Of a DNA stretch of 64,000 nucleotides, positions 5,345-52,848 are shown one piece after another. The stretch is from the sequence record MN342150. The stretch is one strand, 5' to 3'. The position numbers and the translations under genes were made by a program. The notes beneath the pieces are model-generated. The model did not search any database and was not told the origin of the DNA. It saw only the letters and a list, made by a program, of their open reading frames with translations. The stretch is from Escherichia phage vB_EcoM_3HA11. How positions within the stretch are numbered: position 1 is the first letter of the stretch; each line of letters opens with the position of its first letter.

Positions 5345-5917
5345 ATGGTCATTATTGACTCAACAGATATTTTGATTGCTGTTCTTAGTATGGTTGGGGT
5401 CTGTATTCTCGTTATGGGAATCAAAAAATCTTTGGGAAAACAAGTTGTTGAGGCCGTCTCCTCAGATTTACAACCAGAAAATACCACGAAAAATGTTAAA
5501 GACATAAAACTTATTCTGAGTAGCCGTGTGTCCAAAAGTTTGGTTCCGAGCATAGATGATTTCAACTTACACTACAAAGACCCAGACACTACTCCTGAAG
5601 AATATTTTCAATATTTCATGAAAGGTTTGGGTTGGCCGTTCATAGAATCGTGTGTATCAAAATCAAATTGTTTCTATTTGAAAATAGCATGTAAAGGTGA
5701 ATATCAGGCTGTATGGTTTTGGAATTACGACGACACTTACGATAAACAATTTTTGATATATCTTCACAGGTTGTTTAAAGAGTATATGAACAACGGCAAT
5801 GTCCCTGTTCACAAGGTAGAAACTGTAGAATCTATCGTGGATCGTGCTCGAACTCGTAATGGAACGAAACCAGATTATCTTTCCAAGTATGGATTTGTTT
5901 GGAAGGAGGACATATGA
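5345..5917 (+). CDS. membrane-anchored protein (about 190 aa)
   Basis: Internal ATG of ORF 5195..5917 located just after the terminator-like hairpin; N-terminal hydrophobic helix ILIAVLSMVGVCILVMGI. Confidence 0.45.
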   Translation: MVIIDSTDILIAVLSMVGVCILVMGIKKSLGKQVVEAVSSDLQPENTTKNVKDIKLILSSRVSKSLVPSIDDFNLHYKDPDTTPEEYFQYFMKGLGWPFIESCVSKSNCFYLKIACKGEYQAVWFWNYDDTYDKQFLIYLHRLFKEYMNNGNVPVHKVETVESIVDRARTRNGTKPDYLSKYGFVWKEDI

Positions 5918-6081
5918 AAGACATTTCATTTTATATTTGGTCTGCAATATTATTTTTCGGGATCTTGATTATTCTTTTTCAACCGTTTTGGGCCGAATGG
6001 ATCAATAATAGAAGAATGCGCAAATATGGAGTGGATGTTCTTCAGATTGTAGATAAGGCTAGAAAAAGACGCAGCAAATAA
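5914..6081 (+). CDS. small membrane protein (about 55 aa)
   Basis: ATGA start/stop overlap with preceding gene, AAGGAGGA RBS; one hydrophobic helix then basic tail. Confidence 0.35.
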   Translation: MKDISFYIWSAILFFGILIILFQPFWAEWINNRRMRKYGVDVLQIVDKARKRRSK

Positions 6082-6134
6082 ATCTATTGAAGTCTCTGGG
6101 GTTATAATAACAAGACGAATAACCCTGGAGACAC

Positions 6135-7562
6135 ATGATGCTTCCTCTCTTAGAAATAATCCAAAATCTTCGTGATACCAAAGGCACTAATGCTAAGAAA
6201 GCCGTGTTGACCGAAGCGTTCAGAACCAATCCGGAACTGGTTGATTTCCTTCAATACGTTTATGATCCAATGCGTTCTTATTATCGCACCCAATTCAATC
6301 TGAATGCATTCCCTCGTATGCTTTCGCGCGGCGTTGTCGGTAGCTGGGATCAGGTTTATGACGTTCTTGATATGATGTCAGAACGTCGTATTGGCGGGAT
6401 GAAGGCCGACCAAGAACTGGCAAAAGCCGCAACGAATATTCACTCTGATTATCACACCCTCATCCAGATCATTCTCGACCGAGACATTAAAGCGGGGATT
6501 GCTGAGAAAGGTATCAACGCAGCATTCAACGCAGCCGGAGGCACAGGTCGCCTGATTAACATCCTCCCATATCATCGTTATGGCAACATGACGATTGATT
6601 TGTTGAAGACGATGGACTTTAAGCGTGGCGTCTTCAGCCAGCTGAAGTCAGATGGCATGTTCGCCAACATCATCTGTCGTTATGGAAGAGACCCAGAGAT
6701 TCGTTCTCGTTCCGGTTCTCTTATTGCAGGAGGTTCTGTTGATAACCTGTCATTAGTTTTCAAAGACCTGATCTACGATGCGGGGATTGGTGAAAGTGTA
6801 TTCCATGGTGAACTCCTCGTCATTGATCTGAAAACGAATACAGTGTTGCCTCGGGCTATCGGCAATGGTAAGCTCAACAGTGTCATCCAAACGGGTGAAC
6901 CCCTGGAAGATCGTTACAAGGTGATCTACCGAGTGTGGGATGTTGTGCCGTATGACAAGTGGTTCGCCGCCGAGCGCGTGGACACGCCTTACGAGCAGCG
7001 CTTCGATATCATACAGCAACTGTTTGATGAAGGCGATGGTCTGGTTCAGGTTCAGGAGACCCGTGTCGTTCATTCGTTCGAAGAGGCGGTTGATCATTTC
7101 AAGGACGCACTGGCCCGTGGTGAAGAAGGAACGATCTGCAAAGCGGCTGATATGCCATGGGAAGACGGCACGTCCTCTGAAGGTCTGAAGCTGAAGATGG
7201 AAGTAGAATGTGACCTTGAAATCGTTGGCTTCAATGAGGCCGACAAGAAAGGGAAACACGCCAAGACATTTGGTTCCCTCCTCTGCAAGACATCCGACGG
7301 CCTATTAGTCGTTGGTGTCTCTGGGATCTCAGATGAGCTGAGACTCCGGATGTGGGAAAACCAGGGCGACTACATTGGCATGATAGCTGCAGTGCTCTCT
7401 AACGGTGTCCAGGATAAAACAGATGACGCCATGAAGTCCTTGTTCCTCCCGCGACTTGTCGAAGTGCGCACAGACAAGAAAGTTGCCAACACGCTGGCTG
7501 AAGTCTATGCTATCCAGAAAGCGTACATTGAAAACATTCTGGTGTTGTTAGAGGCAGCATAG
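6135..7562 (+). CDS. 30: ATP-dependent DNA ligase (T4 gp30 homolog)
   Basis: 475 aa; adenylation motif KSDG (LKSDGMF); N-terminus LLEIIQNL...KKAVLTEAF parallels remembered T4 ligase ILKILNEIASIGSTKQKQAIL. Confidence 0.85.
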   Translation: MMLPLLEIIQNLRDTKGTNAKKAVLTEAFRTNPELVDFLQYVYDPMRSYYRTQFNLNAFPRMLSRGVVGSWDQVYDVLDMMSERRIGGMKADQELAKAATNIHSDYHTLIQIILDRDIKAGIAEKGINAAFNAAGGTGRLINILPYHRYGNMTIDLLKTMDFKRGVFSQLKSDGMFANIICRYGRDPEIRSRSGSLIAGGSVDNLSLVFKDLIYDAGIGESVFHGELLVIDLKTNTVLPRAIGNGKLNSVIQTGEPLEDRYKVIYRVWDVVPYDKWFAAERVDTPYEQRFDIIQQLFDEGDGLVQVQETRVVHSFEEAVDHFKDALARGEEGTICKAADMPWEDGTSSEGLKLKMEVECDLEIVGFNEADKKGKHAKTFGSLLCKTSDGLLVVGVSGISDELRLRMWENQGDYIGMIAAVLSNGVQDKTDDAMKSLFLPRLVEVRTDKKVANTLAEVYAIQKAYIENILVLLEAA

Positions 7563-8717: not shown

Positions 8718-10658
8718 TTACCAATCCCAAAGAATACGACCTGCGTCAGTACGGTTGGACGGCTCCAGTTGTGAACTGTTGAAGTTGTTTGTCGTACTGA
8801 CTTTCTTCGAGTTATCAACATTTTGTTGTACAGGCATTACCACACTGGCTGGCGGGTTGGCGTAGGAAGATTTAACTTCCTCAATGTTGTTAGCCGCTCT
8901 CCCCTGAACCGGATATGCCCCACCCAGAGTACCTCCCCCGATCCCAGCATATGCATCTTTCAATTGAGAAGTGCGATCTGTTACGTTCACAGCATCCGAA
9001 GAAACCCCAGAAGGCATTGGAGTCAGCGTGCTGATATCTGCATTAGGTTGTGCTGGCGATTGACTGTTCGGTGGTGCAGAGGCATTCTCAGGAGCCTTAT
9101 CGTCTTGGCTTATCAGCATAGACTGTCTTGCTTCCGCCATCTTATTCCTGGCTGCTTCACCACCCAACGCATCGGGGATAATGCTGACAAACTTATCCAC
9201 GATATCAAACATCGCATTGGTGATAGCATTCAACATGTTGAAGAAAGGTTTCTTCACATTTTCAGCAAATCCTTTCTTCATGTCTTCAACGACTTTGTTT
9301 GCAGCCGCCATGCCGTCATCTATCAGGCCAGTTATTCCACCCGTTACCCAATCAACCAATTTTATCAATTGGCCTTGCAAGTTATCTGCAAGTTTACCAG
9401 GTATTTCGGTCAGTGATGTACTCTTCCCGATACCCGCAAACAAATCGTTGGTGACCCAATCAACAATCGAGTTCAACCAACGCACGGGCGCTTCGGTCAT
9501 TTTCAGCACTTGTTCACGGAACGCCTTTCCAAACCCAGCATTGTTCCATCCGAATATTTCAGCAACCCAATCGGCGAGATCCCCGAAACTACCGACCAGC
9601 TCTGTTATCCCTGCCTGAACCCGATCAACGATCGATACTTGCGCTTTACCAAGGATTTCTTTAGCATTAAAGAACCCTTTACCGAATTCAAATACAGATG
9701 TTATTAACGCCAGAGGTCCAACTCGAAGCATCTTGGTTGCTGCTTTCAGAGGCGCAAGCAACCCGCCGATCCCAGCACCAAACCCCATGAATAATTTAAT
9801 GAAGCCACCAACAAGTTTTAATGGGGACATCAGGAGTTTTAACGCGCCCAGTCCAAGGAGTGCCCCCAGCGCCGCGCCTAACCCAGAAGATTGACCATCT
9901 TGTTTAGGCTCAGACGGAGGGATAGAACCAGCCTCTGGATTGTTCTTGTTTTCCTTACCTTCTTCGCCACGACGGAATTTCTCTTCTTCTCTATATTTTT
10001 GATCACTTTCATAGATACGTGTCAGAGTATCATTAAGATCTTCGTTCATGTATCCCAATTTGTCATCAATGCTGTCGAGGCGGGTAACAGTTTCGTTACT
10101 GGCATCTTTATTGAAATCTAGCGTGTCCTTATGCGTTTGAAGCATTATGTCAGTCAGGTTTACGATCTTCCCTCCGACCAACGCCAGCTTATCCTTTAAT
10201 CCATCAAGGCGTTCAAGACTATCTTCGTTGGCCGCGCCCAATTGATCTGATATCATGTCAAGATATTCAACTGACATGTCGTCAACCGGACCATTCGCTG
10301 CTTCACCAAATTTTTCGATCTTGGTGGCGATACGCATCAGTTCTTCATTGCCATCCTTTGTTAGACTGACGGTGTCTTTCATCCAAGTGCTGTAATCCCT
10401 TGTGAAAATAGGACTGACGCGGACAAACCCACCAACAATATCATTCACCGATGGGAATTTAATTGGCGGGACTTTCTGCTCCTGATTAGACGCCTGGCGT
10501 GTCTTCAGAGATTGCAGTTGTTTGTTGACATCGGCGAGCTGTTTATTCGTCTCGGATTGGGCGCGCAATTGCTTGCGCTCCATCATTTCTTTTTTGATTT
10601 TATCCAAAACCTTGACGATGTCTTGCTGCCCTGGTGTCGGTTGATTGTTATCTGCCAT
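8718..10658 (-). CDS. tail tape-measure / baseplate hub-like structural protein
   Basis: 646 aa; N-terminal coiled coil, central Gly-rich hydrophobic block (GLGAALGALLGLGALKLL...GFGAGIGGLLAPL); last gene of a four-gene minus-strand structural operon. Confidence 0.4.
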   Translation of the reverse strand: MADNNQPTPGQQDIVKVLDKIKKEMMERKQLRAQSETNKQLADVNKQLQSLKTRQASNQEQKVPPIKFPSVNDIVGGFVRVSPIFTRDYSTWMKDTVSLTKDGNEELMRIATKIEKFGEAANGPVDDMSVEYLDMISDQLGAANEDSLERLDGLKDKLALVGGKIVNLTDIMLQTHKDTLDFNKDASNETVTRLDSIDDKLGYMNEDLNDTLTRIYESDQKYREEEKFRRGEEGKENKNNPEAGSIPPSEPKQDGQSSGLGAALGALLGLGALKLLMSPLKLVGGFIKLFMGFGAGIGGLLAPLKAATKMLRVGPLALITSVFEFGKGFFNAKEILGKAQVSIVDRVQAGITELVGSFGDLADWVAEIFGWNNAGFGKAFREQVLKMTEAPVRWLNSIVDWVTNDLFAGIGKSTSLTEIPGKLADNLQGQLIKLVDWVTGGITGLIDDGMAAANKVVEDMKKGFAENVKKPFFNMLNAITNAMFDIVDKFVSIIPDALGGEAARNKMAEARQSMLISQDDKAPENASAPPNSQSPAQPNADISTLTPMPSGVSSDAVNVTDRTSQLKDAYAGIGGGTLGGAYPVQGRAANNIEEVKSSYANPPASVVMPVQQNVDNSKKVSTTNNFNSSQLEPSNRTDAGRILWDW

Positions 10659-10668
10659 TTGTCACCTC

Positions 10669-12057
10669 TCAGACCTTCTGGGCTTGTCCTTTCTCTATTG
10701 GCGTCGGAGTTGGTGTAGAAGCCACAGTTTGACCAGTCTGAGGCGGTAAGACCTTCTGGATCATACTATCTTTGGCAATCTCAGCGACGCATTGATAATC
10801 ATTTGTCAGGCGTGAAATCTTGTGGCGTATCTTTGTGACGATATAATGGCCTGTTGATAACTTACTTAACTCGGCAATGTTTTCATTAGATTTCGGGCGG
10901 TTCGACAAATCTTCAATATAATAAACCTGCCCAACATTCAGACGGTTATCCCCCACGACCAGCAAACGCATAACCGTTGACGCGAGGCTGAATTCTATAA
11001 CGCGTCGTGCGTAATCTATTTGTTCGGCACCATCCGGTTGCGCTTCAATGTACCTAACGTTCTCACGGTCGAATTGATCAGAGAACAAAGGGAACGGATC
11101 AAGGTGAGCAGTGCTGTCAAACCATTCTGAATAAATGCGTTGGGTCGCTGTCGTGGATTTTGTACTAAAGTCATACACGCGCTCGTTCACTGCCAAGATA
11201 TCCCGATAATTCGCCATGTACTGATCACGCGCCAGTTTCTTTTCAGCCTTGATGATCGTCCGCATAAAACGTTCGGAGTTGAAGTTATTGTCTTGCATCA
11301 ACGGGGCATCTTGAGGATCACGGAAGAATTTCTTTTCCGCGCTTGCCTCTTGTTTCTCTTCGGCAGTCATGGACTGATTGCCCTGGTTGAACAATGTCGT
11401 CATGCTCTTGAAGTGATAGCCTGTGAAGTCTTCATAGAAAACAAATGGCATAAACAATTCGTCGTATGCGCGGCTGGCCATATAATCGATGGAACGAAGT
11501 ACAGGCCAAAGAGGAGTTGCGAATCGTTCTTGCACGCCATACGACGGATCTATGTCTTCAAATTTGGTTCGAGAATTTAACTGCTCAAAAATCTTGGCCG
11601 CCATTTCTGAATAAGAACCGTTCAGACCGATAGACTTACGCAGCATGCTGTCACGGTACGCATCTGTTGTCACCAAGTGCAGCCAAAATGCTTTTTTAGA
11701 TGATGAATTGGATTCATCCGCAACTCTACCCACCCGACTCACGCGCAATGAGAGAGTAGTGTAATCAGAAGCCGCTGGTGATTTGAATGACACCACTACT
11801 TCTTCACCGCCAAGTATCGGCATTGTGTCCAATATATCCCAACCTTCTTTTATCAAGATATTGGCTGTCAGTGAAGGAGAAGCATTACCTTCCAAACCAA
11901 GATCTTGGTAGACGTTGAATTCTTGAAATAAAGAAGACAGGTCATATGGTCTTGGCGTACCACCTTCTGGAGTATGTGGTAGGATCGCCATATACTTCAA
12001 ATCAAATGTGGTGGACGGTGTTAAAATACCGTCTTGAGATTCTTTATTTTCGATCAT
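10669..12057 (-). CDS. putative baseplate/tail structural protein (462 aa)
   Basis: Operon context with neighbouring structural genes; 4-nt overlap with upstream gene; no specific motif. Confidence 0.35.
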   Translation of the reverse strand: MIENKESQDGILTPSTTFDLKYMAILPHTPEGGTPRPYDLSSLFQEFNVYQDLGLEGNASPSLTANILIKEGWDILDTMPILGGEEVVVSFKSPAASDYTTLSLRVSRVGRVADESNSSSKKAFWLHLVTTDAYRDSMLRKSIGLNGSYSEMAAKIFEQLNSRTKFEDIDPSYGVQERFATPLWPVLRSIDYMASRAYDELFMPFVFYEDFTGYHFKSMTTLFNQGNQSMTAEEKQEASAEKKFFRDPQDAPLMQDNNFNSERFMRTIIKAEKKLARDQYMANYRDILAVNERVYDFSTKSTTATQRIYSEWFDSTAHLDPFPLFSDQFDRENVRYIEAQPDGAEQIDYARRVIEFSLASTVMRLLVVGDNRLNVGQVYYIEDLSNRPKSNENIAELSKLSTGHYIVTKIRHKISRLTNDYQCVAEIAKDSMIQKVLPPQTGQTVASTPTPTPIEKGQAQKV

Positions 12058-16466: not shown

Positions 16467-17041
16467 AATGCAATTCCTAAATTTGTGTATAACAACTCAG
16501 CCAGGGTGACAGGACGCTTGAATTGTTCCCAACTGCAGTTCAGGTATTCGCGCTCTTCGCGAATATTTTCGTGAAGATGGCCATGGATATTATACGCCCA
16601 ACGGTCTAATTGATAAGGAACATGTGTTGTCAACACACGGCCAACAGGCGTGTCACGTTCGTACATAGCGCCGAAGGAGCTAATCCAGCCGTCCATATAC
16701 AAAGACAACAGCATCTTAAAGCTGTCGTGGTTGCCCTGTGCCACCCTGATGATAAAGTTCGGACGCCAGTCATCGGGGACGGGGCGTCGCTTAAACTCAT
16801 CAATGTTTCGCTTGGCACCCTCCCGCATCAGGCGAATGAACCCTTCAGCCCCGATGAAGCATATATCACCAGCCAGTTCAAGGACGTCCCGAGACTTCAG
16901 CCCCTGGAAGATCGTGTCGATAACCGCAGCGTCATGCGCTTCCTGTGTATCAAATCCACGCGGTTTAAAGACCTTCTTATGCCCAAGGTGAGTGTCACCA
17001 AGGTACTTTACGATTCCCGCCATTATGGTTTCCTCAGCCAT
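16463..17041 (-). CDS. calcineurin-like metallophosphoesterase
   Basis: 192 aa; phosphoesterase motifs GDTHLG, GDICF, GNHD, GHLH in canonical order. Confidence 0.7.
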
Positions 17042-17364
17042 TCTAAAATTGGTACGTTCACAAACCCTTTGTGCCAGCGGTGTGGGTTGTGGCCTCTGTT
17101 ATGATCTAGTAAGCACGTATCGGGAGGAACACTGAAGTGAATGCCTTCGATGTCATAATAATTCCCATCAATCAGGGTGTATACATGACCTTCAATCTGG
17201 CTATAATGGATCTCTGCTTGGGGATACACATGCTTCAGAACCAGAGCAACCTGATAGCACTTTCCGTTCTTCCCGATATACTCGACATCGACCTGTTGTG
17301 GGAACACGTCTTTGATAAGATTTATCAATCTCGTGATATCATTTACAACAACCGAACGTTTCAT
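17023..17364 (-). CDS. hypothetical protein (113 aa)
   Basis: ORF in operon; His-rich C-terminus. Confidence 0.4.
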
Positions 17365-17366
17365 CT

Positions 17367-18029
17367 CTATGATAACTCATGGCGGTGTCGAACACACGCA
17401 GGGCAATTACAATTCTTTTTCAAAATTGGCATTTCACACCATGTCATTAAGTCATGTATTGGGGACATGTGATGATAGAACCAAGATTTCTTGAGACTAA
17501 TCAATGGATATAAAATTTCAATAGGTCTTTCCCCGTCTCTGGTCATCATGTTGTACCCTTCAATGACTTTATTAAAAGCGGGTATCCAGTGTATTGCGTC
17601 ATCGCCGTTAACATATGCCAATATATACGTGGACGGCAAGCCCCTGCCTTTAAATTGCGTGTTTAATAACCATATCGGGGCTTGTGCTAAACAAGCGCGA
17701 AAACCACCGTCAGGGACGTTGATGCCACTGATAGGTTCTTGATGATGTGTCCAACGATACATAAGAAGTGGGGCATTTTTATTAATCCAGTTGTGAATTT
17801 TATTCCTCGCCCAATTTTCGCGTTTAGATTTGCATTTATTATTTTCGAGGTGGCAATACACAGTATGAACTGAATATCCTTTCGATAACAACCAAATCAA
17901 CATGTATGTGCTATCCACCCCACCAGACCAGAACAACGTCACTTCTTGATTATTCTCCGGCAATGGAGCATCCCCTTGAAGAACACGGTATACAAAATCA
18001 CAATCAGATATTGAGACAACAATTTCCAT
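17367..18029 (-). CDS. PP-loop ATP pyrophosphatase, QueC-like (7-cyano-7-deazaguanine synthase-like)
   Basis: 220 aa; N-terminal PP-loop LFWSGGVDST; C-terminal cysteine cluster CNCPAC resembling QueC zinc site; size matches QueC. Confidence 0.5.
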   Translation of the reverse strand: MEIVVSISDCDFVYRVLQGDAPLPENNQEVTLFWSGGVDSTYMLIWLLSKGYSVHTVYCHLENNKCKSKRENWARNKIHNWINKNAPLLMYRWTHHQEPISGINVPDGGFRACLAQAPIWLLNTQFKGRGLPSTYILAYVNGDDAIHWIPAFNKVIEGYNMMTRDGERPIEILYPLISLKKSWFYHHMSPIHDLMTWCEMPILKKNCNCPACVRHRHELS

Positions 18030-18110
18030 TAAAATATTCCTCTTAAAGAATCATTTGTTGTGCGCCATAAAGATATGATGGTGCAATGATAATACATTAT
18101 ACAAATAGAA

Positions 18111-18129
18111 AAGCCCCTTTCGGGGCTTA
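18111..18129 (-). terminator. rho-independent terminator
   Basis: Hairpin AAGCCCC-tttc-GGGGCTT; on the minus strand followed by TTCTATTTG. Confidence 0.4.
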
Positions 18130-20984: not shown

Positions 20985-21296
20985 CTAATCTATCCATATT
21001 TCAGGTTCAGGAATATCGACCATCTCCACGGTTTGATTCTTTAATTCGTGGAAACAATCTCCAAGGAATTGTAATTTACCATCTGTCAAAAATAAATGGC
21101 AACGGCTATTTGGATCAGAATGATTCACCAACAGACTAGGAGTGAAAGTCGGTGATTCGAGATCGTGATTCCATTGCCATATTGGGCCAGGCATTTGCCC
21201 TGAAATGCGATAAGGATGAAGCATATTACAACCAGGACAATGAAAATATATGGAACCACCCATTGACAATAATTTTGAAGTCAGCAACTTTGACAT
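20985..21296 (-). CDS. small zinc-finger-like protein (about 103 aa)
   Basis: Start moved to Met 1 nt after the upstream stop; HCPGC...CH...C..H pattern. Confidence 0.4.
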   Translation of the reverse strand: MSKLLTSKLLSMGGSIYFHCPGCNMLHPYRISGQMPGPIWQWNHDLESPTFTPSLLVNHSDPNSRCHLFLTDGKLQFLGDCFHELKNQTVEMVDIPEPEIWID

Positions 21297-21297
21297 A

Positions 21298-21609
21298 TTA
21301 CGCCTCCACTTCTTCATCAGGAAAATAAGGGCGTAAATCCCCAATTAATTTAGGGAAGAGGGCAAACCCGAACAGATTAAAAGAACGCATGGTCCCAACC
21401 ATACCAACATCATCCAATTCGGTAACGTCAGAAAGGGCACACAACGGTATCCACACGTCTTCTTGTCCTTCGTAATTTACGAAGGCAACTTCCTCTTTGA
21501 TGAATCGAGGACACAGAATATCAAACAGCCAATAGACGTATGCCAGCAATGAGAGACTGCGGAAATATACAAACATGGTGAACCCCTCACAGGTTTGGAG
21601 GGAATTCAC
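21298..21609 (-). CDS. hypothetical protein (103 aa)
   Basis: ORF following the topoisomerase genes. Confidence 0.4.
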   Translation of the reverse strand: MNSLQTCEGFTMFVYFRSLSLLAYVYWLFDILCPRFIKEEVAFVNYEGQEDVWIPLCALSDVTELDDVGMVGTMRSFNLFGFALFPKLIGDLRPYFPDEEVEA

Positions 21610-52006: not shown

Positions 52007-52095
52007 TGGCGGAAGGTGAAGGATTCGAACCTTCGGGGGCTAAAAGCCCCACTCGATTAGCAGTCGAGTCCCTTAAACCTCTCGGGCAACCTTCC
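52007..52095 (-). tRNA. tRNA-Ser (anticodon GCU)
   Basis: Hand-folded cloverleaf: acceptor GGAAGGT/ACCTTCC, anticodon stem CTCGA/TCGAG with loop CTGCTAA, long variable arm, T-loop TTCGAAT, encoded CCA. Confidence 0.7.
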
Positions 52096-52099
52096 AATT

Positions 52100-52183
52100 T
52101 GGAGCGGGAGAACAGGATTCGAACCTGTCCAGTGATCGTCGCCGATGATCAGTCGGCTACTGGCCAACCCCTATGGCTCCCGC
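52100..52183 (-). tRNA. tRNA-like element (anticodon loop CTGATCA, possible GAU), non-canonical junctions
   Basis: Acceptor GCGGGAG/CTCCCGC and T-arm present, but one extra nucleotide between T-stem and acceptor, no clean D-stem, pyrimidine at position 37. Confidence 0.3.
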
Positions 52184-52544
52184 GAAATTAGGACGGGCTT
52201 CACACCCGATTGAGCATTTCATCTGCCCGTTTGAAGGGCGACCAGTGCCTTCTGGTCTGTACACAGCTGGCTGCAACGCTTACCGTGTTTGGTCTACCGC
52301 TACGTGCTGGGCCACGCTCGAGGACATCGGCCATCCTTCCTCAGCTAATCCACGCAGCGGCAGATTTGTATCAGAGTGTCCGGTGTAGCTTTCCGTGAGG
52401 TGCGCACTACTGTAGCCTCTACACTCTGAATTTGGTGGGCGTTACTATCGTCGTCTTCGGATTCCGTTCTGCTATTGGACAGAGGCTTGGAGCTTGTCGG
52501 TCGCATACTTCGTGCCTATTCACTTTCGTTCACACCCGTAATTC

Positions 52545-52619
52545 TGGCGGTGCCTCAAGGACTCGAACCTTGCTATCACGGATTAACAGTCCGCCGCTTC
52601 ACCATTTAGCTAAAGCACC
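52545..52619 (-). tRNA. tRNA-Asn (anticodon GUU)
   Basis: 75 nt; acceptor GGTGCTT/AGGCACC, anticodon stem GCGGA/TCCGT with loop CTGTTAA, T-arm CAAGG-TTCGAGT-CCTTG, encoded CCA. Confidence 0.65.
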
Positions 52620-52627
52620 TGAATATT

Positions 52628-52703
52628 TGGCATGCCCTCCAGGACTCGAACCTGGGTTGTACGGTTTTGGAGACCGACCTCATAGCCGCTAGATCAAGGG
52701 CAC
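52628..52703 (-). tRNA. tRNA-Trp (anticodon CCA), weak D-stem
   Basis: 76 nt; acceptor GTGCCCT/AGGGCAT, anticodon loop CTCCAAA, T-arm CCAGG-TTCGAGT-CCTGG, encoded CCA. Confidence 0.5.
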
Positions 52704-52717
52704 ACACCTTACAACGA

Positions 52718-52742
52718 ACTATACTGTATAAAGGTTATTGAA
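52718..52742 (-). promoter_or_regulatory. promoter-like motif TTCAATAA-N11-TATAGT (minus strand) upstream of tRNA-Trp
   Basis: The -10-like hexamer ends about 15 nt before the mature tRNA-Trp 5' end. Confidence 0.35.
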
Positions 52743-52771
52743 ACAAACCTTTATTTTATTCAACCATAATA

Positions 52772-52848
52772 TGGTGATCCTGGTTGGGTTTGAACCAACG
52801 ACCAATGAATTATGAGTTCACTGCTCTAACCGACTGAGCTACAGGACC
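52772..52848 (-). tRNA. tRNA-Met (anticodon CAU; initiator/elongator/Ile-lysidine not distinguished)
   Basis: 77 nt canonical cloverleaf: acceptor GGTCCTG/CAGGATC, D-arm GCTC-AGTCGGTTA-GAGC, anticodon stem GTGAA/TTCAT with loop CTCATAA, T-loop TTCAAAC, CCA. Confidence 0.75.

Follow-up and report, generated by a model that had tools for sequence, protein, structure and literature searches.

What a phage might do with a solitary gene of the QueC type is the question raised by an open reading frame (ORF) of Escherichia phage vB_EcoM_3HA11 (sequence record MN342150), of which a 64,000-nucleotide stretch, referred to here as the window, was analyzed. An earlier note, made from the letters of the window, had described the product of this ORF as an orphan QueC-like PP-loop ATPase; as QueC makes preQ0 in 7-deazaguanine biosynthesis, which some phages use to modify their DNA, it had proposed that the rest of the pathway lies elsewhere, that the phage draws on host intermediates, or that the protein is a different amidoligase, possibly part of the phage's DNA modification chemistry. 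From the searches, alignments, and structural models described below, the protein is probably a stand-alone zinc-ribbon PP-loop ATP pyrophosphatase from a phage-restricted branch of the QueC family, with a host-derived substrate and a role in host interaction or auxiliary metabolism.

17367..18029, minus strand: coding sequence of the QueC-like PP-loop ATP pyrophosphatase, with an ATG start, 220 codons, and a TAG stop; orthologues of its product are CBA120 orf028/gp024, SeSz-1 gp139, and ECML-4 YP_009101458

The ORF encodes, as first described, a 220-residue protein with an intact SGGVDS form of the SGGxDS PP-loop. The source of the window is a Kuttervirus (Ackermannviridae, ViI/CBA120-like); over 4 kb around the gene, the sequence shares 98.7% identity with Salmonella phage SeSz-1. 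The ORF is kept at 92–99% identity in >160 Kuttervirus genomes and at 30–63% identity across other Ackermannviridae; its conservation in the Kuttervirus genomes, together with a match to PHROG 1550 at E 6e-80, puts it far beyond what a chance reading frame would be expected to give. The CBA120 orf028 and SeSz-1 gp139 orthologues carry the RefSeq name "QueC-like queuosine biosynthesis." Proteomics of a Vi01-like phage recovered one peptide of the orthologue (PMC10892097), a weak sign that the protein is expressed.

Membership of the QueC superfamily was established with both sequence profiles and structure comparison. As a single sequence, the protein scored 24.9 bits against the Pfam QueC model (gathering score 22) over residues 33–64, with ThiI, MnmA, and argininosuccinate synthase close behind. 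The QueC equivalog model TIGR00364 gave 18.5 bits against a cutoff of 150.3, matching residues 33–58, and no match below E 0.2 was obtained by phmmer against the PDB. The match to PHROG 1550 ("QueC-like queuosine biosynthesis," a name that is an annotation label rather than a tested function) extended over residues 1–219 at E 6.3e-80. A HMMER search of 1.84 billion representative proteins returned 476 relatives at E<=1e-3 (50%-identity representatives); those listed span ~130–435 amino acids, mostly ~180–300, and most align over nearly their whole length. A family alignment and profile were built from 61 of these relatives, all of which match PHROG 1550. Against PDB sequences, this profile matched Bacillus subtilis QueC (3BL5, E 9e-12) and the immune ligase Cap9 (9NTO_B, E 1.9e-9), both over the full length, whereas all other PP-loop families were matched at E>7e-4 and over the first 40–60 residues only; PDB QatC was matched at E 0.61. 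The suggestion that the protein is QueC-like, and not of the TilS, MnmA, or GMP synthase type, was thereby upheld.

Profile–profile alignment by hhalign gave probabilities of 97.8% for Cap9 (E 8e-13) and 96.3% for QueC (E 1.8e-9). The AlphaFold2 (AF2) model of the phage protein (mean predicted local distance difference test (pLDDT) score 81.8; predicted template modeling score 0.81) was compared using Foldseek, which ranked Cap9 first (1.6e-5) and QueC sixth (4.7e-4). The PADLOC model for the CBASS-type "QueC" (190 positions) matched 59 of the 61 relatives, the best at 1.6e-17, and on the phage protein itself matched residues 26–83 only (1.2e-6); the PADLOC QatC model matched four of the 61, weakly (E about 1e-3). 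In a viral structure library, the orphan proteins of Noxifer, Vibrio phage YC, RSF1, and Muddy cluster with the phage protein at E 6e-12 to 4e-4, and the QueCs of phages annotated or described as having a deazaguanine pathway rank lower, at E>=1.4e-3. The phage protein is a genuine QueC-superfamily member of the PF06508 type, with a PP-loop Rossmann domain and a C-terminal zinc ribbon. By these comparisons its family stands at roughly equal distances from QueC and from Cap9 and leans slightly towards the latter.

For the active site, residues of the phage family were compared column by column with those of QueC and Cap9. Libby et al. (2026) found Y35, R99, Y131, and Y189 of Escherichia coli QueC to be essential, alanine mutants abolishing function (PMC13329287), and the definitions of canonical QueC and of its zinc motif used here come from the same paper. 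In the Cap9 and QatC structures, 7-deazaguanine is held by the Tyr and Asp of a Y-x-D motif and the Arg of an RN motif; the Tyr stacks on the base, the Asp hydrogen-bonds to it, and R86 of Cap9 also stacks on it. The corresponding elements of the phage protein are the following.

17910..17927, minus strand: PP-loop S35-G-G-V-D-S40, the ATP pyrophosphate-binding motif, preceded by the family-conserved W34
17817..17843, minus strand: N63-N64-x2-K67-x2-R70-E71, a family motif in place of QueC YxQxHxxE
17682..17684, minus strand: Q116, in the hhalign column opposite the Arg of QueC VPxRN and Cap9 RN; present in 58/61 of the family
17586..17615, minus strand: Y139-V-N-G-D143-D144-A-I-H-W148, in place of the QueC YPDC and Cap9 YxDC base-recognition loop
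17487..17489, minus strand: K181, present in 61/61; equivalent of QueC K165 in the P-L-x4-K segment
17394..17438, minus strand: zinc-ribbon motif C198-E199-x7-C207-x-C209-x2-C212, the predicted zinc site

The elements that serve ATP and zinc are kept. In the PP-loop, which aligns with SGGQDS of QueC and SGGMDS of Cap9, G37, D39, and S40 are invariant and S35 and G36 are found in 57 of 61 relatives. K181 stands opposite the Lys of PLMWLNK in QueC and of PLLDWHK in Cap9. C198, C209, and C212 are present in all 61 sequences and C207 in 59, and these four residues align with the zinc ribbon of QueC and Cap9, bearing out the proposal that the C-terminal CxCxxC cluster is placed like the QueC zinc site. 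The spacing in the phage protein (C-x8-C-x-C-x2-C) is one residue shorter than the C-x8-C-x2-C-x2-C of QueC and Cap9, the difference falling between the second and third Cys; 10 of the 61 relatives have this short form and 49 the canonical one. At its end the motif has Arg or Lys in 55 of 61 relatives where Cap9 has Asp.

The elements by which QueC reads its substrate are replaced. Of YxQxHxxE, only the Glu is retained, as E71 (59/61), the equivalent of QueC E42; the Tyr column (E. coli Y35) is Ile or Leu (L61 here), the His column is variable, and N63 (53/61) aligns with the Gln of QueC (Q37) and Cap9. N64 is present in 56 of 61 sequences and Lys or Gln at position 67 in all. The Arg of VPxRN (E. 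coli R99; Cap9 R86) lies opposite Q116 in the hhalign alignment to QueC and opposite the variable column 110 in that to Cap9, and no conserved Arg equivalent to R99 was found in the 61-member family. The base-recognition loop is 3–6 residues shorter than its QueC/Cap9 counterpart and carries its own conserved residues (Y139, 61/61; D143, 61/61; D144, 50/61; an aromatic residue at 148, 58/61). When aligned to Cap9, D143 falls opposite the base-reading D117 and Y115 of Cap9 lies in a 4-residue deletion; when aligned to QueC, the aromatic residue at 148 falls opposite the Tyr and the Asp lies in a deletion, so that an intact Y-x-D dyad appears in neither. The Tyr after the first zinc-site Cys (E. 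coli Y189) is replaced by E199 (59/61), giving "C-E" as in Cap9. G37, D39, S40, D143, K181, C198, C209, and C212 are invariant throughout, and the family signature is also present in jumbo-phage members, which argues for a single conserved activity. The QueC substrate signature is lost, and the ATP and predicted zinc sites are intact.

The absence of a FolE, QueD, QueE, or DpdA/TGT-like gene, first remarked on for the window, also holds for the complete genome of SeSz-1, where none of these is annotated among 203 features. DpdA, FolE, QueD, Gat-QueC, and QueE of phage 9g, a characterized deazaguanine phage, were used as queries against every stop-to-stop ORF of SeSz-1 and of the window (2,464 in all). 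DpdA, FolE, QueD, and QueE gave no phmmer match at E<=10 in this set, with a best tblastn value of E 0.26, and the genuine Gat-QueC domain of 9g matched the phage ORF only at E 7. According to Hutinet et al. (2023), every phage known to have 7-deazaguanine in its DNA encodes DpdA (PMC10516641). Mass spectrometry coupled to liquid chromatography (LC–MS) of the DNA of ViI, CBA6, CBA120, and 1.255.O showed dA, dG, dC, and dT plus a single fifth nucleoside, 5-(2-aminoethoxy)methyldeoxyuridine (5-NeOmdU) (PMC5889632). The ECML-4 orthologue (YP_009101458, 92% identical and syntenic) had already been flagged as a singleton and probable separate subfamily by Hutinet et al. (2019) (PMC6884629). The gene is an orphan in a complete phage genome and not in the window alone. 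For the phage genome, the idea of remaining pathway genes elsewhere is refuted, and the use of host intermediates to make preQ0 is unlikely given the replaced QueC-essential residues, the lack of DpdA, and the normal dG of ViI-type DNA (PMC5889632). The phage protein is almost certainly not a preQ0 synthase feeding 7-deazaguanine DNA modification. Of the two findings that the earlier note had set against its QueC proposal, one was made (no other pathway gene and no modified guanine) and the other was not, best homology still lying with the QueC family.

The family is spread widely among phages. Isolates that carry it include Kuttervirus, Agtrevirus, Taipeivirus, Erwinia and Serratia phages, and Vibrio Campanilevirus within the Ackermannviridae, as well as Pseudomonas and Ralstonia jumbo phages, other Vibrio phages, and relatives of Mycobacterium phage Muddy; it is also found on many metagenomic contigs of 50–358 kb. 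For NCBI-sourced relatives, cluster membership gave Serratia phages as the only named organisms. When one genome from each of 185,579 bacterial and archaeal species was scanned, full-length copies were found at three loci, and the family (PHROG 1550) appears to be phage-restricted. Within genera its presence is uneven. Among Klebsiella phage records, the adjacent DexA exonuclease gene was found in 45 and the QueC-like gene in only 7 of these (missing in 38/45), and all 19 Dickeya phage records with a match to the flanking DNA lack it. In Klebsiella phage May, two small ORFs occupy the syntenic position that holds the gene in Klebsiella phage 0507-KN2-1. The gene is a dispensable accessory gene, gained and lost within a genus.

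Two loci with family members are unusual in other respects. The metagenomic contig IMGVR_UViG_3300025122_000440 (locus L031) encodes three divergent paralogues, at 5908–6624, 6621–7244, and 10384–11091, of which two lie in tandem, the stop of one overlapping the start of the other; these paralogues lack two residues of the core signature, Q116 and Y139. One of the three full-length bacterial copies is in a Geobacteraceae metagenome-assembled genome (JACABD010000018; locus L042, 5815–6585), on the opposite strand between genes for WD40-repeat proteins (988 and 1292 amino acids), a CHAT-protease-domain protein, and a TPR/M48 peptidase. These surroundings look like a conflict-system island rather than a prophage.

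A search for functional partners was based on 35 IMG/VR loci plus the isolate loci, together forming 25 lineages with <50% identity between lineages. The flanks (6–10 kb) were scanned using blastp, phmmer, and Pfam and PHROG recurrence over 148 flanking proteins. No neighbor is shared across the 25 lineages: blastp recurrence was limited to <=3 lineages and Pfam/PHROG recurrence to <=2, and none was found by phmmer. Neither queD, queE, folE, nor dpdA recurs among these neighbors; CD-NTase and TGT are not among the recurring neighbor families listed; no QatA, QatB, or QatD context was found in any lineage; and CD-NTase, Cap10/TGT-like, and OGG proteins are not among the window neighbors. In longer relatives (300–435 amino acids), Pfam gave one sub-threshold HAD match as the only sign of a domain fusion. 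Further out, the neighborhoods hold what is usual in the accessory and nucleotide-metabolism region of a large phage (thymidylate synthase, DHFR, NAMPT, and DNA ligase among it) and nothing specific. The absence of conserved partners is systematic.

Several candidate links were considered and rejected. Small ORFs downstream of the gene (113–150 amino acids, often overlapping its stop codon) could have hidden a common partner but are not mutually homologous. On a 293-kb jumbo-phage contig (JGI contig Ga0654438_0000002; locus L059, 10711–11148), a T4 gp30.3-like NADAR protein (PF08719, E 1e-28) overlaps the QueC-like stop codon. NADAR enzymes reverse ADP-ribosylation of guanine bases. A general link to NADAR proteins or T4 gp30.3 was discarded, as the adjacency was confirmed at this locus only. 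Bacterial operon context was set aside as a clue, there being only three full-length loci, of which the Geobacteraceae case is a single anecdote. tRNA linkage was likewise rejected, since a tRNA gene lies within 6 kb of the family gene in only 2 of 26 loci, as was charge as a hint of a nucleic acid substrate, the isoelectric point (pI) of the family not being consistently basic (median 6.6). A NAD-synthetase-like role of the NARP3 kind was dropped because the NARP3 paper has no PP-loop, QueC, or NadE term. In a literature search, neither Qat nor type IV CBASS had a reported phage antagonist, and no work on the Muddy or jumbo-phage homologues came up.

Conservation of the ATP site, of the Lys and the Asp, and of the zinc lid suggests that the protein is an active adenylate-forming PP-loop enzyme. 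The SGGxDS loop, D143, and K181 would bind Mg-ATP, and the substrate would sit beneath the zinc-ribbon lid in a rebuilt pocket formed by N63/N64, E71, Q116, Y139, D143/D144, aromatic-148, and E199. Its carboxylate (or carbonyl oxygen) would be adenylated by the α-phosphate of ATP, and displacement of AMP by ammonia or an amine would give an amide. As no dedicated phage pathway supplies a substrate, this would be provided by the host, and since the pocket is conserved across phages of very different hosts and no phage partner accompanies it, the substrate would be a host molecule that very different bacteria share, whether small or macromolecular. The accessory, patchy, and phage-only distribution agrees with a role in host interaction or auxiliary metabolism rather than in the core replication machinery.

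A number of points weigh against this interpretation. The ligase chemistry is extrapolated to the whole family from QueC, Cap9, and QatC. The alignments of the base-recognition loop disagree, and D143 or aromatic-148 may keep the ancestral base-recognition place. QatC is without the same motifs, yet two later papers describe QatC as deazaguanylating QatB, whereas one structural study failed to reconstitute this reaction and suggested another substrate; on the QatC precedent, motif loss lowers, but does not eliminate, the likelihood of a 7-deazaguanine or 7-carboxy-7-deazaguanine (CDG) substrate. In the AF2 model, confidence is lowest precisely at the zinc-ribbon lid (pLDDT ~60, and <50 at residues 198–201), so that pocket geometry could not be analyzed. 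Finally, phage restriction rests partly on a pattern-based genome scan of limited sensitivity.

Among other explanations, the protein could be a Cap9-like ligase that joins a nucleobase-type carboxylate (e.g. host CDG) to an amine (e.g. a protein N terminus), or else an immune-evasion factor that disturbs the QueC-family deazaguanylation immunity of type IV CBASS and QatABCD by substrate use, mis-modification, or sequestration. We regard this as unlikely. The "C-E" motif is common to Cap9 and the phage family where QueC has an essential Tyr, the minimal size of Cap9 (~190–220 amino acids) is shared, and the base-reading D117 of Cap9 stands opposite the invariant D143 in one alignment, but the margins of similarity between Cap9 and QueC are small, HMMER puts QueC first, and the phage family does not conserve the Tyr and Arg that stack on the base in Cap9. 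The patchy distribution as an accessory gene, the singleton status, and the restriction to phages are what counter-defense genes typically show, and one bacterial copy lies among the WD40/CHAT conflict-type genes described above; against this, no conserved partner or gene for a substrate with an N-terminal Gly adjoins the family in 25 lineages, and a CD-NTase, Cap10, QatA, QatB, or QatD context is lacking. For the evasion version, the literature search yielded no phage-encoded antagonist of either system, and deazaguanylation of the immune proteins appears to be constitutive, in which case depletion of the substrate after infection may achieve little. That phages have a Cap9-like QueC branch of their own, whether for ligating a host nucleobase-type carboxylate to an amine or for subverting deazaguanylation immunity, is to our judgment distinctly unlikely. 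A step in 5-NeOmdU thymidine hypermodification, or in another DNA base modification, is given hardly any credence. Hypermodification is a feature of Kuttervirus DNA (PMC5889632), the gene is surrounded by genes of nucleotide metabolism such as dCMP deaminase and DexA exonuclease, and amidoligases occur in some thymidine-hypermodification clusters (PMC8989533). However, 5-NeOmdU has been rebuilt on 5-hydroxymethyldeoxyuridine DNA with ViI gp67, gp160, gp226, gp243, and gp247 only (PMC8989533, PMC5889632); the assigned steps are those of a kinase, serine transfer, and pyridoxal phosphate-dependent decarboxylation, none of which needs a PP-loop enzyme. The gene is also absent from 38 of the 45 Klebsiella records and all 19 Dickeya records counted above, while modification genes are reported to be conserved family-wide (PMC11721090); the family is present in many unrelated phages, including jumbo phages, and LC–MS shows one noncanonical nucleoside only. 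Because the pathway was reconstituted without a PP-loop enzyme and the distribution of the gene is patchy, the protein is very unlikely to be a step of this hypermodification. Of the earlier proposal of a different amidoligase, the amidoligase itself is the reading favored here, and its tie to the modification chemistry is not borne out, given the reconstitution with five other ViI proteins (PMC8989533) and the distribution of the gene and its family.

Two further explanations turn in part on the tRNA genes of the phage.

52007–52848, minus strand: cluster of five tRNA genes, Ser(GCT), Ile(GAT), Asn(GTT), Trp(CCA), and Met(CAT)
52545–52619, minus strand: tRNA-Asn(GTT), with a queuosine-type anticodon

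The cluster lies ~34 kb from the QueC-like gene, and other lineages show no linkage. The tRNA with the CAT anticodon could be of the Ile2 type, which requires lysidine.

A divergent but true QueC would make preQ0 from the CDG of host FolE, QueD, and QueE, for instance boosting the queuosine content of host or phage tRNA; the tRNA-Asn(GTT) is carried in the window. The Pfam QueC score is just above gathering (24.9 versus 22), the zinc motif and the equivalents of K165 and E42 are kept, public annotation is QueC-like, and CDG is made by enterobacterial hosts (PMC13329287). All four essential E. coli residues (Y35, R99, Y131, and Y189) are nevertheless replaced, TIGR00364 is missed by a wide gap (18.5 bits versus 150.3), the 9g Gat-QueC domain matches only at E 7, genuine phage QueCs are structurally farther from the protein than other orphans are, and the activity would be redundant with that of host QueC. 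Hutinet et al. (2019) came to the same negative view, and we consider a true QueC quite improbable. Still less probable is a PP-loop enzyme for tRNA or RNA modification (thiolase, lysidine, or agmatidine type) with tRNA of the host or the phage as its target, a proposal which finds some encouragement in weak N-terminal matches to ThiI, MnmA, and TilS models, in the five phage tRNA genes including the CAT anticodon, and in one BFVD relative labeled as a TilS N-terminal domain. Matches to the tRNA-modifying group (TilS, MnmA, ThiI, and TtuA) are confined to the first 40–70 residues and fall below NCBIfam cutoffs, whereas those to QueC and Cap9 are full length; in neither the protein nor the longer relatives does Pfam find a domain for RNA binding, be it THUMP, PUA, or another, and outside the zinc ribbon no third-Cys Fe-S site is present. 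The pI of the family, as noted, is not basic, and tRNA genes are rarely near. The stand-alone, host-directed adenylate-forming enzyme set out above remains the probable reading, as stated at the outset.

The signals around the gene, and its nearest neighbors in the window, are listed below.

18037..18044, minus strand: Shine-Dalgarno-like AAGAGGAA, 7 nt 5′ of the ATG, as read from the sequence
~18096–18101, minus strand: TATAAT box after the terminator hairpin; the scanner made no full sigma-70 promoter call
18111..18128, minus strand: terminator-like GC hairpin and T-run, directly after the stop of the preceding 96-aa ORF
17023–17364, minus strand: Phage_YunG-like protein (PF24591, E 9e-44), its start 2 nt after the QueC-like stop codon
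16134–16466, minus strand: DUF7618 neighbor (E 3e-54)
20985–21344, minus strand: DUF6527 neighbor (E 2e-13)

According to the terminator scanner, the hairpin at 18111–18128 has a stem of 7 bp with five GC pairs and the tail TTCTATTTGT; it scores as a terminator on both strands, with the T-run on the minus strand and ATTTGTCTTC on the plus strand. As this hairpin appears to close the preceding 96-aa ORF, the QueC-like gene is predicted to be the first gene of a new transcription unit. Just upstream, close relatives differ: CBA120 has a 98-aa ORF (orf027) abutting the QueC-like gene, and the window and SeSz-1 have instead a 97-bp spacer with the terminator hairpin (18030–18126). Several Kutterviruses match the 4-kb region in two pieces, with ~250–360 extra bases spanned, and the difference is accordingly best read as a small-gene indel among close relatives. 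The PF24591 neighbor is missing beside the QueC-like gene in Klebsiella phage 0507-KN2-1. More widely, the gene neighborhood in the window is one of nucleotide metabolism, for example dCMP deaminase and DexA exonuclease. Two database entries, OR844942.1 ("Enterococcus phage Efm 3-10," 111 kb) and MN871475.1 ("Pseudomonas phage Pa-sanjiao," 158 kb), are 96–98% identical to the Kuttervirus region and are probably mislabeled or contaminated.

The orphan status of the gene was noted by Hutinet et al. (2019) and the gene is routinely annotated; no long-standing question is opened here. What is added is the residue-level failure of the QueC signature, the family-wide signature that replaces it, the near-equal distance to Cap9, the absence of partners, and the within-genus pattern. 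In hundreds of phage genomes the RefSeq/PHROG label is "QueC-like queuosine biosynthesis," and some relatives are named "7-cyano-7-deazaguanine synthase." Such labels invite the wrong inference that 7-deazaguanine is made or used and should be read as fold-level similarity only. The QueC scaffold was recently shown to be reused for protein–nucleobase conjugation in two bacterial immune systems, and the phage family is a third remodeled branch, phage-only, conserved from Ackermannviridae to jumbo phages and always alone, which makes it a well-defined target in the search for new adenylate-forming chemistry or phage–host interaction. Natural pairs with and without the gene within a genus, such as Klebsiella phages 0507-KN2-1 and May, offer a ready comparison. 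Should the protein after all be Cap9-like, it would be a viral counterpart of a chemistry known so far only from bacterial defense.

Set beside previously described proteins, the ECML-4 singleton of Hutinet et al. (2019) (PMC6884629) is an orthologue from which nothing differs in kind, and the Muddy "ATPase," another singleton of that study, is a structural relative. A 2026 survey of PF06508 analyzed the ten largest clusters only and described no phage-specific cluster. Canonical QueC resembles the phage protein in fold, size (~220 amino acids), the SGGxDS PP-loop, the K165/K181 and E42/E71 pairs, and the position of the C-terminal four-Cys zinc ribbon. Unlike the phage protein, it keeps Y35, R99, Y-P-D, and Y189, passes TIGR00364, and is associated with queD, queE, and folE. 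Cap9 of type IV CBASS (PDB 9NTO) ligates CDG to the N-terminal Gly of a CD-NTase. Its motif set consists of F/YxQ(x)5E, RN, H(x)4YxDCxxxF, a P-x-K segment, and CE(x)6CxxCxxCxD; of these, the phage family keeps CE, the Lys segment, and possibly D-x4-aromatic, and loses RN, the terminal Asp, and, in the YxDC loop, both His and Tyr. The stacking Y115 and R86 of Cap9 and its F/YxQ(x)5E spacing are likewise lacking, and whereas Cap9 is found in defense islands with CD-NTase and Cap10, the phage protein is phage-encoded and has no conserved partner. QatC differs in its length (~400 amino acids), its N- and C-terminal extensions, its T278/T280 motifs and C-x19-CGxC zinc motif, and its constant company of qatA, qatB, and qatD. 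It is nonetheless alike in being a QueC scaffold in which the CDG-recognition motifs have been replaced and the PP-loop and zinc motif kept, and so provides a precedent for the remodeled active site of the phage family.

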